Shown piece after piece: positions 13,514 to 50,980 of a stretch of DNA of 64,000 nt; within the stretch, counting starts at the first letter, position 1, and each line of letters opens with the position of its first letter. A model generated the notes under the pieces. That model saw nothing but the letters and a program-made list of their open reading frames with translations, made no database searches and was not told the DNA's origin. The position numbers and the translations under genes are program-made. Where the stretch lies: contig JAJYHZ010000001.1 of the NCBI GenBank assembly GCA_021796335.1, positions 80,360-144,359 of the forward strand, in the 5' to 3' direction. The stretch is from a bacterium. Its GTDB lineage: Bacteria; Patescibacteriota; Minisyncoccia; UBA6257; UBA9933.

Positions 13514-13706
13514 AAGGTTAAAGGTTGGGTGCATTTTAAAGGAAAGGGAGAATTGGAATCATATCACTTTGATCCTATTGAGAATTTTTAATGCGACTAA
13601 GCGAGGAGTAAAATGCAAAAAAATTTTATTTTTTCATTTTGGATGAGCAATGCCGGATAAAGAGTTTCTTTGACTCTTTAAGGAGCCGATTTCCCGACCC
13701 TTTTTT

Positions 13707-13742
13707 AATCGTATATCTTGACGATCGTCAAGATATACGATT
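13707..13742. repeat. 36-bp perfect palindrome AATCGTATATCTTGACGATCGTCAAGATATACGATT (copy 1)
   Basis: exact inverted repeat; identical copy with identical short flanks at 50642..50677. Confidence 0.9.
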
Positions 13743-13799
13743 ATTCCGAATAGTGTAATGTTTTGTTGAAAATAAAAAAATGATTTATAATTCATCACA

Positions 13800-25874: not shown

Positions 25875-25964
25875 GGAGGCGTCGCATAGTGGCCGAGTGC
25901 GCTCGCTTGGAAAGCGGGTAAGGGGTAAAACCCTTCGTGAGTTCGAATCTCACCGCCTCCGCCA
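25875..25964 (+). tRNA. tRNA-Ser (anticodon GGA), CCA encoded
   Basis: acceptor GGAGGCG/CGCCTCC, anticodon loop TTGGAAA, long variable arm, T-loop TTCGAAT, 3' GCCA. Confidence 0.9.
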
Positions 25965-27461
25965 AGTTTTACATTCAGCGAAATTGAAAGATGTTGCCTC
26001 GGCGCAAAGCGCCTCGGCATGGTATTTTTCCGCAATTTTGAAGGCATTTTTGAAATCCAAAACCAAAGTGCGGTCGGCAATGCGGAAGTTCGAACCAATC
26101 TTTTTGAGAAAATCCCGAATCCTTTCGGGATTTTCTTGTTGAGCGTATTTTTCGGCTTGGTTGGCATCTTTTAGAAAGGCAATGGCAAGTTCGAACCGAT
26201 TATTGCTCTTGCGCCCAAAAGCGGTAATTTTTTCTTCCAAATTTTTTTTGGCGAGAATGAGCTTGTGCTTTTTAGCGGTATATTCCGCTTGCGACAAGTT
26301 GCCGTCCAGTTGTAAATCAAGCAAGCGATCAAGTTTTGTTTCTATTTCTACAAGCTCATTTCTCGCTTTTTGGGCGAAAGAGCTTTCCGCTTGGGCAATT
26401 TTCATTTTTTCGTTTTCAAAATAGTTGATTGAAGCGTTTGCCCAAGCGGAAGACAAAGAAACTTTTTTGATTTCCTCTTTTATTTGAGAAGTGATGGCGT
26501 CCTCTCTCACATATCTCTGCGAACAAGGATTCTTCCGTTTGGTACACCGCAAGTAGTTATGACCTTTTTGCGTTTCGGTGGTAATGAAACAACCACATTC
26601 TCCACAACGGAAAAATCCTCTAAAAATGTATGGTTTGAGTTTTGGCGATTTCGGTTTGCTCTTGTTCGCCATTACTTCTTGAACGGAATCAAAAAGTTTC
26701 TTTGTGATAATCGGTTCATGCTTTCCGTCATACAATTCGCCGTTATATTCAATCATTCCGTAATAGATTTTATTCTTGAGCATATACTGATAATTTGAGA
26801 CGGAAAGCATTTTGCCTTTCTTGCCAACCAAGCCCAAGGAATTGATAATCTTTCGGATTTGAGCGAGGGGGTATTCGCCAGTCGCATACATTTCAAAAGC
26901 CCGCTTGATATACTTTGCTTTTTCCTTATCAACAATAATTTTTCTTTGGTTTTTATCGTTCACATAACCCAGTGGCGCCCAAGCGGGCCATATTCCATTT
27001 CGCAATTTCTGGCGAATACCCCTCTTTATATTTTCCGAAAGATTATCCACATAATATTTTGATTGCCCAAAAGCGATAGACAACATAAATTTTCCTTGCG
27101 GTGTCGGATCAAACCAAAAAGTAGGAAATTTTAGCGTGGTTATTTTTCCAGTATCCACCAAGTAAATTATTCTCCCGCCGTCTATGGAATTGCGAGCCAA
27201 TCTATCGGGGTGCCACGCTAAAATTCCCTCGGCTTCATTTTTCTCTATGCTTGCCACCATTTCGTTAAAAATCTCTCGCCCCGGCTCTTTGGCGGTTTTA
27301 CTTTCCACAAATTCACGGACGATATTTAGTCCCTCTTTTTTGGCATATTCCCGCAACTCAAACATTTGTGCCTCAATACTCAAAACCTGCCTTTCGGGTT
27401 CGTCCGTGGATTTGCGGGCATAGAGAAAAATCTTTTTGGTTTGTAAATTTATATTATCCAT
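25950..27461 (-). CDS. large serine recombinase (resolvase/invertase catalytic domain + recombinase domain + zinc ribbon)
   Basis: N-terminal YARKSTDE...QVLSIEAQ catalytic-Ser region, central recombinase domain, CGECGCF...LRCTKRK zinc ribbon; 503 aa; last 5 codons overlap tRNA-Ser. Confidence 0.85.
   Translation of the reverse strand: MDNINLQTKKIFLYARKSTDEPERQVLSIEAQMFELREYAKKEGLNIVREFVESKTAKEPGREIFNEMVASIEKNEAEGILAWHPDRLARNSIDGGRIIYLVDTGKITTLKFPTFWFDPTPQGKFMLSIAFGQSKYYVDNLSENIKRGIRQKLRNGIWPAWAPLGYVNDKNQRKIIVDKEKAKYIKRAFEMYATGEYPLAQIRKIINSLGLVGKKGKMLSVSNYQYMLKNKIYYGMIEYNGELYDGKHEPIITKKLFDSVQEVMANKSKPKSPKLKPYIFRGFFRCGECGCFITTETQKGHNYLRCTKRKNPCSQRYVREDAITSQIKEEIKKVSLSSAWANASINYFENEKMKIAQAESSFAQKARNELVEIETKLDRLLDLQLDGNLSQAEYTAKKHKLILAKKNLEEKITAFGRKSNNRFELAIAFLKDANQAEKYAQQENPERIRDFLKKIGSNFRIADRTLVLDFKNAFKIAEKYHAEALCAEATSFNFAECKTWRRR
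25962..26091 (+). repeat. R1 copy A (130 bp), abutting the tRNA-Ser 3' end; encodes the recombinase C-terminal about 43 aa
   Basis: 100% identical to the reverse complement of 27577..27706. Confidence 0.9.
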
Positions 27462-27576
27462 ATTGTTTTGAAATTAGTTTTTGGGCAATCAAAGAAAAAT
27501 ACGCTCAACCTTTCGCCAAGGGCGAAAGAAAAAAGATTGGTTCTGAAAACTTCGTTTTCTCTGCACTGTCGTGCAG

Positions 27577-27706
27577 GAACTTCCGCATTGCCGACCGCAC
27601 TTTGGTTTTGGATTTCAAAAATGCCTTCAAAATTGCGGAAAAATACCATGCCGAGGCGCTTTGCGCCGAGGCAACATCTTTCAATTTCGCTGAATGTAAA
27701 ACTTGG
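27577..27706 (-). repeat. R1 copy B (inverted, 130 bp), contiguous with inverted R2
   Basis: exact reverse complement of 25962..26091; read on + strand it re-encodes ...FRIADRTLVLDFKNAFKIAEKYHAEALCAEATSFNFAECKTWR, continuing into R2 as CFLDEVRTFFEQNSE*. Confidence 0.9.
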
Positions 27707-27865
27707 CGGTGTTTTTTGGACGAAGTTCGAACATTTTTTGAGCAAAACTCCGAATGATTGCGCGCTTCGCGCGCAAAACCGAAACGCTCGGGCGGGTAAA
27801 AAGGAAGGGGGTTGGGGGGAAGGAATTTTTGCCCGCCCTCGCTTTCCGCCGCCGCCGAATTTCGT
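27703..27865 (-). repeat. R2 copy (inverted, 163 bp, GC-rich) carrying a dyad-symmetric site GGGCGGGCAAAAA..(poly-C/mirror)..TTTTTACCCGCCC
   Basis: exact reverse complement of 29843..30005. Confidence 0.9.
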
Positions 27866-27975
27866 ATTTTGCTTTGCAAAATGCGCCGCCAAAATTGGAG
27901 TTGTGTTTGCCCCGCCCGCCCGTGCGCACACAACATTTTTTCTCCCTTTGTTTTGCTTGCTAAACATCATTTTAT

Positions 27976-28026
27976 TTGGTAGTATAAAAATACAGATAAT
28001 AACCTTGTATACTACAATACTACCAA
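27976..28026 (+). promoter_or_regulatory. candidate promoter/operator for the XRE gene: 10-bp inverted repeat TTGGTAGTAT-N31-ATACTACCAA overlapping TTGCTA-17-TAGTAT
   Basis: read from sequence just upstream of ATG 28039. Confidence 0.4.
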
Positions 28027-28038
28027 AACTTTATTTAT

Positions 28039-28245
28039 ATGACAAGTGGAAAAACAATAAGTGAAAATATAAAAAGATTACGCAATAAACTTGGTCTAAC
28101 GCAAGACGATTTAGCCAAGAAAGCGGATATTAAATACACTACGCTTATGAAGGTCGAAAGTGGAACAGTTAATAAGCCGAGCGTTCAAACTATGGCGAAT
28201 ATCGCCAAAGCGTTGGGCGTTTCGATTGAGGATTTAATAAAATAA
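28039..28245 (+). CDS. XRE-family (Cro/C1-type) helix-turn-helix transcriptional regulator
   Basis: IKRLRNKLGLTQDDLAKKADIKYTTLMKVESG HTH_3 signature; 68 aa. Confidence 0.85.
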   Translation: MTSGKTISENIKRLRNKLGLTQDDLAKKADIKYTTLMKVESGTVNKPSVQTMANIAKALGVSIEDLIK

Positions 28246-28249
28246 AACT

Positions 28250-28660
28250 ATGGAAAACGAAACAAACAATAAGGCACACGATTTTATTAAAGGAGAAGTT
28301 TTGAAAATGGAGCGCAATTCATTTTTCGTGCGCATGATTGCTGCCGCTTTAGCTTATGCGGGTATAAGCTATTGGCTTAATGCAATTCGTGCCGATGCAT
28401 CTTTGTGGTTTGTTTGGGTTTTGATCATTATTCAATTTGCCCTGTATTTTTCTATTTTTATTATGGGTTATAGGCGTGCAATAGTTTCAGGATTCAACAA
28501 AAATTTGAGTTTAATAGTTTTTATAGCTCTTGCCATTCTTGGAAGAGTAAATGATTGGGAATTGGCGGTTATTCCTCTAACAGTTATCATAATGCTAATT
28601 ATTTCGGCAAAAGCTAAAAATGTTTCTGATAACAGCAAACATTTATTACCACAAAAATAA
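28250..28660 (+). CDS. hypothetical 4-TM membrane protein (136 aa)
   Basis: starts 5 nt after the XRE stop; four hydrophobic helices. Confidence 0.5.
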   Translation: MENETNNKAHDFIKGEVLKMERNSFFVRMIAAALAYAGISYWLNAIRADASLWFVWVLIIIQFALYFSIFIMGYRRAIVSGFNKNLSLIVFIALAILGRVNDWELAVIPLTVIIMLIISAKAKNVSDNSKHLLPQK

Positions 28661-28671
28661 TTTTAAAAAAT

Positions 28672-29382
28672 ATGGGAATTTTTAATTGGTTGTCTAGCAA
28701 TAAAACACAATCCACTAATAAGGACAAAATTACCGCCAAGCAAGTTTTAGATTTTTCTAAAACTTACGAGGAATTAAAACCATATTTTGCTCTCTTTGTG
28801 CATTTCTTTAAATCTATATTGGATAGTGAAAATGAAATTGAGCAGGCGGTAAAAGAAATTCAGTCCAAAACACAGCAAAATCTAAAAGAAGACCAGTTAT
28901 TCAAGGAGTTATGGATTTTACGCTATGTTTGTTTGCATATATGGTTTTTCGATCTCAAACCACCAAAAAATAAAACAGAATTATCCGATGAACTTTTGGT
29001 TATCAATAGCGCGCTTAAAAGTGTTTTGAAAGAAAAGAATAAATTAGATTATTTACCTTGGCTTAAAAATGGTCTGCCTGAATTTGCTGACGGTGAATTA
29101 AACTTTAATAGTCTGAAAAATTTTAGAAAAAATTTTTCAGACAAACTGACAGATAAAATCCCGCATATTGCGTTTGATTGCACAGAGGGGCGATTGGGCG
29201 GAGAATTACACGATTTTGTTATTGAGTTGGTCATGACAACAATTCAAGAAGATCAAAAAGTTTTCAGTATGAGCGATAATAAGACACTAACAGAGGAAGA
29301 AACAAAAAATATCAAAAATGTAATTGCAGAAATGAGCGACGCTAGACATAAAGCGGCGGAAGATTTTATAAATTCTCTATGA
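28672..29382 (+). CDS. hypothetical protein (236 aa), no recognisable domain
   Basis: intact ORF co-oriented in the cargo cassette. Confidence 0.5.
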   Translation: MGIFNWLSSNKTQSTNKDKITAKQVLDFSKTYEELKPYFALFVHFFKSILDSENEIEQAVKEIQSKTQQNLKEDQLFKELWILRYVCLHIWFFDLKPPKNKTELSDELLVINSALKSVLKEKNKLDYLPWLKNGLPEFADGELNFNSLKNFRKNFSDKLTDKIPHIAFDCTEGRLGGELHDFVIELVMTTIQEDQKVFSMSDNKTLTEEETKNIKNVIAEMSDARHKAAEDFINSL

Positions 29383-29816
29383 ATGATTATTTTCAAATCA
29401 TTTTTTCTGCTCTAACTTTACTCGGTGTCGGCGGCATTGTCGGCGGGTATATAACGTTTTTGCTTGATAAAAAGAAAGAGTTGGAATTTAAGCAATTAGA
29501 GCAGAAAGAAAAAAGATATAAATCCTGCCTTTTATACATGGATGTTTATTTTGAGCCGAAAAATATCAAATATCTTTCAAGTCGCCAACCAGATATTGAT
29601 AACGCCCAAGATGTCATAGAATATTTAAAAGCTGAATATCACGAAATGTTGCTTTATGCTTCAAAGGATGTAATTTTATCAGTAAAGGCATTTATCAATG
29701 ATCCGACCAGAGAAAATTTTTTGAAGACTGTTTTGAACATGAGGCAGGATTTATGGGTTAAGAAAAATGATTTAGAATTAGATAGTATTCGGATTGATTT
29801 TAAAAGAAAGAATTAA
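29379..29816 (+). CDS. hypothetical protein with N-terminal TM anchor (145 aa)
   Basis: ATGA overlap with the upstream gene; perfect 9-bp hairpin terminator GTGCCAGTT-TTC-AACTGGCAC follows at 29826..29848. Confidence 0.5.
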   Translation: MNDYFQIIFSALTLLGVGGIVGGYITFLLDKKKELEFKQLEQKEKRYKSCLLYMDVYFEPKNIKYLSSRQPDIDNAQDVIEYLKAEYHEMLLYASKDVILSVKAFINDPTRENFLKTVLNMRQDLWVKKNDLELDSIRIDFKRKN

Positions 29817-29842
29817 AGGCGGCGTGCCAGTTTTCAACTGGC

Positions 29843-30005
29843 ACGAAATTCGGCGGCGGCGGAAAGCGAGGGCGGGCAAAAATTCCTTCCCCCCAACCCC
29901 CTTCCTTTTTACCCGCCCGAGCGTTTCGGTTTTGCGCGCGAAGCGCGCAATCATTCGGAGTTTTGCTCAAAAAATGTTCGAACTTCGTCCAAAAAACACC
30001 GCCAA
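29843..30005 (+). repeat. R2 copy (+ orientation, 163 bp) ending in core-like CACCGCCAA
   Basis: exact inverted match to 27703..27865. Confidence 0.9.
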
Positions 30006-30107
30006 TAGTTTTGGAAAATGAGCAAGTAAAAGTCCTTATTTTACGGCACATTTTAAAAACGAAATTTACAAAAACCACTGAACCCCGAAGGGATTCGAAC
30101 TGAGACT

Positions 30108-30506
30108 ATGAACGACGAAATTCAAAAGATAATAAAGAAGAGCACTTTTAGAGTTGAAGAAGGCAGATTTGTGTATGCTCAAGTTTTAAATGCTCCGAGC
30201 GTAGACAAACACTTCATGGTAAGTAAAGATGCCGATGAAGTCACCGTAGTTACAAAAGAAGAGAATCTGCCAGAATTAGATATCAAAGAACGCAATAAAG
30301 ATTTTTATCGCTTGATTGCGCTAAATGTATCAATACCGTTCTACTCTGTTGGATTCCTAGCAACCATCAGCCAAGCAATAGCTGAACAAGGCATGAATAT
30401 TCTCATCGTATCTACCTATTCGAAGGATTATATTATGGTTAAGGATGATAAGTTGGAAAAAGCAAAGTCGGTCTTGATGGGACTCGGTTTTAAAGAAATC
30501 GGTTAG
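30108..30506 (+). CDS. ACT domain-containing protein
   Basis: C-terminal beta-alpha-beta-beta-alpha-beta-like segment GFLATISQAIAEQGMNILIVSTYSKDYIMV typical of ACT regulatory domains. Confidence 0.45.
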   Translation: MNDEIQKIIKKSTFRVEEGRFVYAQVLNAPSVDKHFMVSKDADEVTVVTKEENLPELDIKERNKDFYRLIALNVSIPFYSVGFLATISQAIAEQGMNILIVSTYSKDYIMVKDDKLEKAKSVLMGLGFKEIG

Positions 30507-30627
30507 TTTGATATAGCGGATTACAACGGATTATAGCGGTAATTAGCAAATCTTTTGAGCAAATTTTGGAATATCAAAATAAGCAGGATTTTCTTTGTAG
30601 ATTCTTCGCAAGTTCCGTATAATTTTA

Positions 30628-31020
30628 TCAACACGATAGAATGAAAACGCCCGTACTGGTTCTAACTTCGGGACATCGCCTCCGCCAATTTTTACTTTTT
30701 GTGAAATCGTAAGGAATTGCCTCGGCGCAAAGCGCCTCGGCATGATATTTTTCCGCAATTTTGAAGGCATTTTTGAAATCCAAAACCAAAGTGCGGTTGG
30801 TAATGCGGAAGTTTGAAAAACACCGCAGAATGAGATTTTGAGCGTACACACGCTTAATTTCTTTTTTATCTATCACGTTTTCCACAAGTTCTAACCTCCT
30901 GTGAATATGATTTATTTCTTTTGATATTTTTCCCATCACTAAAATTAACTTTTCAAGCAAGCACTGAATATTTTGTTTTGAAACGTAAATGGCTGTATAA
31001 TAAAAACAAATGTATAGCAA
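30628..31020 (-). pseudogene. remnant ORF containing a recombinase C-terminal fragment (RTLVLDFKNAFKIAEKYHAEALCAEA)
   Basis: 130-aa ORF whose middle matches the last about 40 aa of the serine recombinase; no catalytic domain. Confidence 0.5.
30676..30820 (+). repeat. diverged third R1 copy preceded by the 12-nt tRNA-Ser 3' duplicate CGCCTCCGCCAA (attR-like or remnant)
   Basis: about 98-bp near-identical core (30716..30813) to R1, with 2 mismatches; tRNA-proximal 40 bp diverged. Confidence 0.8.
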
Positions 31021-46900: not shown

Positions 46901-47189
46901 TAATCCTATGATAACTGTTGTAAAACGGAAGCGCGGATAAATCGGCAAATTTCGTGTTGGCCGGTTGTCCGCCACGAGGCGGATTTTTGTTTCTAAAAGA
47001 AACAACCCCGAGTAAAATCAAAGGGTTAATCCAAAATCAAAAACTGAAACGATAGTATTGACAGAATCATTGAAAATTTAATATTTATTCCATGCATAAC
47101 ATAAAATGTATGTGTGGAAGTCAACAATCATAACAAAATACAAATAAGAATTTTGTTTTCTGGGTAAAATAATCCCAAAAGAGGATTTC

Positions 47190-50365
<3,176 letters not shown>

Positions 50366-50582: not shown

Positions 50583-50641
50583 TGCGAAAGTTTTAATCTG
50601 ATGCAAAAATCCTCAAACGGGAATTTTGTATTTTTGTTTTT

Positions 50642-50677
50642 AATCGTATATCTTGACGATCGTCAAGATATACGATT
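50642..50677. repeat. 36-bp perfect palindrome (copy 2), 60 nt after the 5S
   Basis: identical to 13707..13742 including 4-5 nt of flank on each side. Confidence 0.9.
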
Positions 50678-50980
50678 ATTTAATTAATCTATAAACCCCA
50701 GGTGTAACCGGGGCGTGCCATATAATTGATTTCAATCTCCATAATAATACTTTATGCTGCGAACAAATTTATATAATTTAGATAAAATAATTCATTAATT
50801 ATCACAGAATAGCCGGCGATAAAGCCGGCAAAAACAATGCCATCGGACGGTCAGTCTGATGGCCGTTTACTTTAACAAGGAAAAAACCAAGAGAAATATA
50901 AATCCTGTTGTTAACGGGACTTTTTTAATTTAGAAATATTTTTTATACTTATATAAATTTGCAATTTTCAATCTGCAATC

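Follow-up and report, generated by a model that had tools for sequence, protein, structure and literature searches.

Introduction

The large serine integrases of phages and of integrative and conjugative elements (A118/LI, phiC31, Bxb1, SPbeta SprA) have the same kind of enzyme and attachment-site logic as the locus described here, a ~4.05-kb integrative element at positions 25959-30005 of a 64,000-nt stretch (the window) of contig JAJYHZ010000001.1, from the Patescibacteriota assembly GCA_021796335.1. The element is inserted in the 3′ end of a tRNA-Ser(GGA) gene. Its large serine recombinase (LSR) has the same domain set as the phage and conjugative-element integrases, and its attachment (att) sites likewise have a short core shared by attP and attB, a presumed zinc-ribbon motif 5 bp closer in attB, and hybrid attL and attR sites. 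Unlike these integrases, the LSR of the window crosses over within its own coding sequence and uses the conserved 3′ half of a tRNA gene, tRNA-Ser (or tRNA-Gln), as its target. It shares less than 30% identity with the LSRs of phages and plasmids, and the element keeps a second, inverted attP.

In its layout the element may be likened most closely to the yeast 2-micron plasmid, which carries the FLP/FRT system within 599-bp inverted repeats. Both have two long identical inverted repeats, each with a recombinase target, that divide the element into two unique segments, and the recombinase gene is in one of these. In both, the layout is kept as the sequences drift apart. The likeness would be one of architecture, and membership fails on enzyme class and replication genes: the element has a serine rather than a tyrosine recombinase, a bacterial host, a tRNA-integrated state and strongly unequal isomers, no replication or partition genes were recognised in it, and its circular form is inferred. 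The DNA invertases Hin, Gin, Cin and Pin are ~190-aa proteins acting on 26-bp sites with a 2-bp core, together with a Fis-bound enhancer. As in these systems, a serine recombinase gene adjoins a segment between inverted sites; unlike them, the element has a 503-aa integrase, att-type sites and repeats of 163-420 nt.

Elements of the SSV1 type have a tyrosine integrase with attP inside the int gene, which integration splits. The element shares with them a crossover within the gene, so that integration in the tRNA alters the integrase reading frame; unlike them, only the last ~15 codons of the LSR are exchanged. Tn4451 and Tn5397 (TnpX/TndX) are small LSR elements that excise as circles, have no separate recombination directionality factor and use GA-centred targets. 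They offer a precedent for less strict site pairing by LSRs, and differ from the element of the window in having neither a tRNA target nor long inverted repeats. Tycheposons of Prochlorococcus are described as small cargo elements at tRNA genes with tandem accretion, mostly carrying tyrosine recombinases and in a minority an LSR (10.1101/2020.12.28.424599), and the element resembles them in its small size, its carriage of cargo, its target and its accretion, and that minority in its enzyme. The passages on serine recombinases in that report mention neither an inverted internal attP nor repeat-bracketed modules, and the comparison is to that extent incomplete. We found no published description of the element in the literature searched, nor of its combination of features (an LSR less than 30% identical to characterised LSRs, a crossover in the integrase gene, a T-arm/CCA target and two conserved repeat pairs), which is apparently undescribed.

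Results

Two contiguous pairs of perfect inverted repeats

A first-pass annotation of the window had reported GC-rich 163-bp inverted repeats around a four-gene cargo, and proposed that each repeat holds a serine-recombinase crossover site at which the cargo might be inverted. The repeats were confirmed. R2a and R2b (27703-27865 and 29843-30005) are 100% complementary over 163 nt, a match far in excess of chance, and the 1977 nt between them contain four open reading frames (ORFs) on the + strand (28039-28245, 28250-28660, 28672-29382 and 29379-29816). Since the repeats are inverted, the cargo is invertible in principle. GC content is 54.6% in R2 (62% in its hairpin part), against 38.4% in the window and 33.4% in the cargo, and the segment is foreign, as the annotation had supposed of R2. 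A second repeat, R1, is contiguous with R2a: R1b (27577-27709) is the perfect reverse complement of R1a (25959-26091), and R1 and R2 overlap by TTGGCGG. R1 is the 3′ end of the adjacent serine recombinase gene, and the tRNA-Ser gene abuts R1a (Table 1).

The LSR gene ends inside the tRNA gene

The LSR contains the Pfam domains Resolvase (PF00239, 1.5e-20, residues 12-157), Recombinase (PF07508, 7.8e-17) and Zn_ribbon_recom (PF13408, 1.6e-09), and in PHROGs it matches phrog_95, integrase (4e-80). The serine nucleophile lies in the resolvase catalytic domain within the motif YARKST, and residues ~340-440 appear helical and heptad-like as judged by eye from the sequence, which makes them a candidate for the coiled-coil insertion that integrase-type LSRs have in the zinc-ribbon domain. 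The stop codon is inside the tRNA-Ser(GGA) gene, and at the tRNA junction the native tail CFLDEVRTFFEQNSE is exchanged for RR*. Homologues show the same alternative: their C-termini split after ...WR into CFLDEVRTFFEQN, which reads through into R2, or RGRDSNPR..., which is the translated tRNA T-arm. The two tails place the crossover inside the integrase gene.

An exact database look-up of the LSR protein returned no record, a PDB search matched the N-terminal domain only, and identity to the LSRs of PLSDB plasmids and phage records was below 30%. IMG/VR contained one distant LSR (58%) and no match to the dyad pattern or the attP pattern, indicating that the element is not catalogued as viral. 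Integrase-type LSRs carry out the attP x attB reaction in one direction and need a recombination directionality factor to reverse it; no candidate for such a factor was recognised for the element.

Junctions define attL, attR and an internal attP

We aligned four junctions of the window on TTGGCGG: R1|core|tRNA-Ser, reverse complement (J1), R1|core|R2 (J2), host|core|R2 (J3) and R1c|core|decayed arm (J4). J2 consists of the left half of J1 and the right half of J3, which is the relation of an attP to its attL and attR. In ~90 R1-anchored junctions of relatives the core, always TTGGCGG, is followed either by an R2-type arm or by the 3′ half of tRNA-Ser. When attR sites from other genomes are compared, the leading base of the 7-mer tracks the left, host arm, so the exchanged identity narrows to TGGCGG, whose centre would be the palindromic dinucleotide GC. 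Measured from this presumed centre, TTCGAA starts at 19 nt in R2 arms and at 14 nt in tRNA arms (~100 junctions). The zinc-ribbon motif of LSR sites lies 5 bp nearer the centre in attB than in attP (Rutherford et al., PMC3783163), the same inward shift of 5 bp.

The cores at 25959-25965 and 29999-30005 are in direct orientation and form the ends of the island, one of which carries the intact tRNA-Ser(GGA) gene (25875-25964) overlapping the LSR stop codon. Between them, R1b, core and R2a make up an intact, inverted internal attP (27577-27865). The B arms of attR are unrelated between loci.

An older LSR 3′ end lies just outside the element. R1c (30674-30817, − strand) is 90% identical to R1b and is a relic with its own core (30682-30688) and a decayed P′-like arm. 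It falls within an ORF (30628-31020, − strand) that ends in a decayed attP-type tail, ...NWRRRCPEVRT.... R1c marks an earlier accretion at the same site. Because R1c has its own TTGGCGG core and an attP-type tail, the ACT-domain gene region between it and the element (30006-30673) may be cargo left behind by an earlier insertion and not native flank. Immediately upstream of the ACT-domain gene, at 30080-30096, a hairpin resembles a T arm (GAACCCCGAAGGGATTC, which includes GGGATTCGAAC) and is possibly a piece of a tRNA 3′ half that was displaced.

Table 1. Coordinates of the element and its component features in the window.
Feature	Position	Strand	Evidence
tRNA-Ser(GGA), intact; integration target (attB B′ arm = acceptor/T-arm 3′ half)	25875..25964	+	ARAGORN; Rfam tRNA, 52 bits
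LSR, 503 aa	25950..27461	-	Pfam, PHROGs
attL crossover core CCGCCAA (reverse complement of TTGGCGG); last 2 nt of acceptor stem, G73, CCA and one further A	25959..25965	-	J1; same junction in ~60 relatives
R1a; last ~42 LSR codons, P arm of the att site (attL side)	25959..26091	-	100% inverted repeat with 27577-27709
X; LSR upstream spacer, conserved in relatives	27462..27576	-	blastn module map
R1b; non-coding inverted copy of the LSR 3′ end, P arm of internal attP	27577..27709	+	Repeat match, junctions, relatives
TTGGCGG core of intact internal attP (R1-core-R2)	27703..27709	+	J2
R2a; P′ arm (TTCGAA 19 nt from centre) and two hairpins	27703..27865	+	Sequence, junctions in relatives
GC-rich hairpin with UUCG loop, TTGCGCGC-TTCG-GCGCGCAA, immediately downstream of the stop that ends the attP-type LSR frame	27758..27776	+	
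hpB palindrome ATTTTGCTTTGCAAAAT, then GCGCCGCC; marks HTH end of cargo	27866..27882	+	
HTH_3 (Cro/C1, restriction-modification controller-like) regulator; conserved backbone gene of the family	28039..28245	+	Pfam; PADLOC control protein; position kept in 28/33 elements
Three cargo ORFs of 136 aa (hydrophobic middle, from sequence only), 236 aa and 145 aa	28250..29816	+	No significant family match
hpA hairpin GCCAGTTTTCAACTGGC; marks distal cargo end	29826..29842	+	
R2b; attR P′ arm and hairpins (dyad 29870-29918, UUCG hairpin 29932-29950)	29843..30005	-	Repeat match
attR crossover core; host-side B arm ...CCAAAACTA|TTGGCGG	29999..30005	-	J3
Empty-site sequence expected for the element, ...CACCGCCTCCGCCAATAGTTTTGG...			

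A widespread family with a conserved layout

The LSR has thousands of homologues. Confirmed matches number at least 538 in GTDB species genomes and at least 572 in JGI metagenomes, and many exceed 90% amino-acid identity in metagenome-assembled genomes (MAGs) labelled as different Patescibacteria lineages, which points to a very recent and broad horizontal spread. Across the GTDB and JGI loci L005-L178, the LSR at this level of identity sits at tRNA-Ser genes with the anticodons GCT, GGA, TGA and CGA.

With the LSR on the + strand, the order of modules is [host-core-R2]-cargo-[R2′-core′-R1′]-X-LSR-[R1-core-tRNA′]. It was fully resolved in 44 loci, and ~40 further loci that are cut at a contig end are consistent with it; altogether the arrangement was met with in more than 100 loci. 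The layout holds at 60-75% LSR identity, in relatives from Elusimicrobiota (60% identity) and in a subclade that targets tRNA-Gln. The internal inverted attP is a conserved trait of the family. Within an element the two R1 copies (133-134 nt) are mostly 100% identical and the two R2 copies (156-423 nt) 97-100% identical, while both pairs diverge widely between elements, a pattern indicating that the copies continue to recombine or to undergo gene conversion with each other. At its inner edge R2 has a conserved sequence (...CCGAATTTCGT).

Two elements stand in tandem at one tRNA gene in L031 (1-8733) and L179 (700-11700). In these arrays the R1-core of the upstream LSR runs straight into the R2 of the element that follows, which gives this LSR an attP-type tail; the resident attL served as attB for the incoming one. 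Such arrays account for many of the attP-type LSR tails, and the idea that all of these tails mark free circles was rejected. One module, recovered twice (L012 = L104, 9667-11589), lies between inverted identical tRNA-Ser(GGA) genes and has neither R2 nor cargo; possibly an internal attP recombined with a second tRNA-Ser gene, or the assembly is chimeric. L102 (1-9172) has the whole LSR module duplicated on both sides of a single cargo in a 1966-nt terminal inverted repeat and is demonstrably a palindromic assembly chimera caused by the repeats of the element.

The dyad in R2 keeps its loop and exchanges its stems

The dyad in which the annotation had placed the crossover, GGGCGGGTAAAAAGGAAGGGGGTTGGGGGGAAGGAATTTTTGCCCGCCC (49 nt), occurs at 27790-27838 (+) and 29870-29918 (−). 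A motif search yielded no further copy in the window, where shuffled sequences lead one to expect 0 matches. The window dyad has a 13-bp stem and an invariant G-rich loop of 23 nt. Relatives show three stem types around the invariant loop, which reads GGAAG5TTG6AAGG, G6TTTG6 or GGAGGGGTCTGGGGAGG. Even between relatives with near-identical LSRs (≥95%) the dyad stems are unrelated and still complementary. Compensatory changes were found in 4/15 and 6/17 stem pairs, and 93-94% of the stem cells are paired; sliding the partner column lowers this to 40-62%. The orientation of the dyad relative to the core varies with the type of R2.

Covarying stems around an invariant loop argue for a hairpin rather than a pair of half-sites, and by this comparison the dyad behaves as a structural element and apparently not as protein half-sites. 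It is possibly a terminator, an insulator or another nucleic-acid signal. No U-tract follows the dyad in the R2 type of the window, the third stem type resembles an intrinsic terminator, and scans with promoter and terminator consensus sequences gave background levels. Rfam models, applied at the gathering threshold to the whole window and at E≤1 to 27400-30200, gave no match in R2.

The cargo is flanked by two further hairpins with a consensus in 20+ loci, ATTTTGCwwwGCAAAAT for hpB and GCCAGTT…AACTGGC for hpA, with covarying stems (27866-27890 and 29818-29842 in the window). GCGCC(A/G)CC follows hpA and hpB on both sides, and the inverted repeat resumes past the 17-nt heterologous hairpin.

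One orientation is strongly preferred

In 28 of 33 distinct elements the HTH (helix-turn-helix) gene lies at the proximal end, by the internal attP, and points away from the LSR gene; in 1-2 it is distal. Scored by the hpA and hpB markers, 20-21 elements have this canonical arrangement and one is flipped (L047); a second marker type identified one further flipped element (L134). One orientation is thus strongly preferred in relatives. Mis-oriented junctions, which are conceivable with a palindromic GC overlap, were absent from 1.9 Mb of loci.

The annotation had proposed a search of reads for both orientations of the cargo. Contigs with the opposite junction exist (L097, L088), and they cross a repeat longer than the assembly k-mer and carry no orientation information. 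We rejected as proof of inversion the same-population contigs L097, compared with L001 and L094 (L097 and L001 being the window's own population), and L087, compared with L088 at 100% identity, because assembly at k≤141 cannot span a repeat of 163-400 nt, and either orientation would require the same gaps in the graph. L086, considered as an isomer with a flipped LSR, was also rejected; its upstream tRNA-Ser has no TGGCGG core and no R1 copy. The geometry of the sites makes inversion of the cargo and of the LSR segment possible, and inversion has probably occurred during evolution; a freely flipping switch is not supported.

Cargo genes and other features of the window

We found no significant match for the three cargo proteins other than the HTH regulator in PADLOC, PHROGs, NCBIfam or Pfam. 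DNA methyltransferases, subunits of type I, II and III restriction enzymes and related ATPases are the Pfam families matched most often by 101 cargo ORFs of 31 relatives, and the family therefore acts mainly as a restriction-modification shuttle. Replication genes were recognised neither in the cargo of the window nor among the 25 most frequent of the 72 Pfam families matched by the cargo ORFs of relatives.

Elsewhere in the window a perfect 36-nt palindrome, AATCGTATATCTTGACGATCGTCAAGATATACGATT, occurs at 13707-13742 and 50642-50677. The two sites are identical over 44 nt (13702-13745 and 50637-50680), and the second lies just past the 5S rRNA gene. The 23S rRNA match (47183-50269) spans 3087 nt against a model of 2925 positions, which suggests that this rRNA carries one or more insertions. 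Insertions in 23S rRNA are often reported in Patescibacteria.

Discussion

We consider it likely that R2 is the P′ arm and flank of the attachment site of an LSR element and is not a self-contained inversion site. As the junctions attest, the LSR recombined an attP of the form R1-TGGCGG-R2 with the 3′ end of tRNA-Ser(GGA) acting as attB, and integration gave rise to attL at 25959 (tRNA|R1a, where the LSR gene ends) and to attR at 30005 (R2b|host). A second intact attP (R1b-core-R2a), inverted, separates the LSR gene from the divergent HTH-cargo operon, with the result that R2a and R2b bracket the cargo, and R1a and R1b the LSR gene, as inverted repeats. Excision by attL x attR would release a circle of ~4.04 kb with two inverted attP sites, one of which integration had consumed. 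Recombination between the perfect repeats could keep the copies identical and occasionally flip the cargo or the LSR segment; its agent would most likely be of the RecA type, and possibly the LSR acting at the core.

Several observations weigh against this account. To our knowledge, canonical LSRs do not recombine attP with attL, attR or another attP, so that host homologous recombination is the default agent and enzyme-driven flipping would be unusual. A circle with two equivalent attP sites should commonly integrate through either copy, yet the 3′ end of the LSR faces the tRNA in ~70 loci and the tRNA is upstream in ~3 (L043, L109, L154); the account leaves this near-exclusive use of the attP copy at the LSR 3′ end unexplained. 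In contigs L087-L091 the LSR module has an attP-type site at either end and host flank is absent, a layout that fits a circle with two attP copies but could also arise from tandem identical copies, and the many attP-type LSR tails that tandem arrays explain need no circle. An exact-match scan of JGI metagenomes with the reconstructed empty attB gave 0 matches for the strain. L001 and L085 are the only contigs of the same strain that reach the tRNA site, and both carry the element.

A programmed switch would make more of the same sites: the LSR would recombine the internal attP with attR and attL at TTGGCGG and invert the cargo or its own gene to alter expression, for instance by read-through of the cargo operon into the LSR gene or by giving the LSR its native tail back. 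In every relative these sites are inverted and complete, with a perfect conservation that extends to the core, the repeat copies evolve in concert, the flipped arrangements of L047 and L134 exist, and the presumed central dinucleotide is palindromic. We regard this switch as unlikely all the same. Orientations divide about 20-28 to 1-2, unlike those of a freely reversible switch, no junction is mis-oriented, and the promoter region of the cargo lies inside the segment, so inversion does not uncouple promoter from cargo. The pairings attP x attR and attP x attL are not accepted by known LSRs (PMC3783163). Alternatively, the internal attP might serve mainly as an operator bound by the LSR in the divergent LSR/HTH promoter region, like res of Tn3 resolvase, with the repeats as a by-product that plays no part in recombination. 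The position of the site between the divergent genes, at a fixed distance in all relatives, fits such a role. Against it, the start codons of the LSR and HTH genes lie ~240 and ~330 nt, respectively, from the core, which is upstream of both, an operator does not need perfect repeats of 134 and 160-420 nt with a fixed inner edge, and the promoter scans are uninformative; we think this role quite improbable as the main one.

The model of the first-pass annotation, in which GGGCGGGCAAAAA and TTTTTACCCGCCC are hix/gix-like half-sites at which a serine invertase flips the cargo, has in its favour that the dyad occurs once per R2, in inverted orientation, and that a serine recombinase gene adjoins. 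The annotation was right that the repeats carry serine-recombinase sites, as the LSR gene lies 240 nt from R2a and its recombination sites are in the repeats, and mistaken about the dyad, because the exchange takes place at TGGCGG, at the outer end of R2 and 87 nt from the dyad. Nor is the layout of the dyad that of serine-recombinase half-sites: where ~12-bp half-sites abut a 2-bp overlap at the repeat boundary in Hin and Gin systems, its 13-nt arms are 23 nt apart and inside the repeat. The replacement of the arms by unrelated complementary sequences next to LSRs that are ≥95% identical, the orientation of the dyad to the core, which differs between R2 types, and the nature of the sole recombinase, a 503-aa integrase-type LSR and not a ~190-aa invertase with a C-terminal HTH, leave this model very little probability. 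Less credible still is that integrated and excised forms were mis-joined into repeats during assembly. Assemblers do mis-traverse repeats, as the L102 chimera illustrates, but the unique junctions X|R1b, R2a|hpB and hpA|R2b require real reads, and more than 40 assemblies show the same layout independently, some of them in contigs of 0.4-1 Mb and one in a contig with long-read-style naming (L050).

The internal inverted attP that is found across the family, the crossover in the integrase gene and the concerted evolution of the repeats are features that the current serine-integrase model does not explain, and the element is a testable case of unusual site pairing or of isomerisation resembling that of the 2-micron plasmid. 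More speculatively, and with the odds against it, these elements may be bacterial serine-recombinase counterparts of the 2-micron plasmid, small circles with two attP sites, existing as isomers flipped by the LSR or the host, that dock reversibly in any tRNA-Ser by way of the universal T-arm/CCA end. If true, they would form a broad-host restriction-modification shuttle across Patescibacteria and Elusimicrobiota. The repeats also break or mis-join short-read assemblies, as in L102, and the orientation and context of such islands in MAGs are untrustworthy without long reads.

Few mobile elements have been recognised in the tiny genomes of Patescibacteria. The spread of the LSR points to a very active, broad-range gene shuttle among these bacteria, mainly of restriction-modification systems, and its conserved target at the 3′ end of tRNA-Ser makes the enzyme a candidate genetic tool for organisms that have very few.

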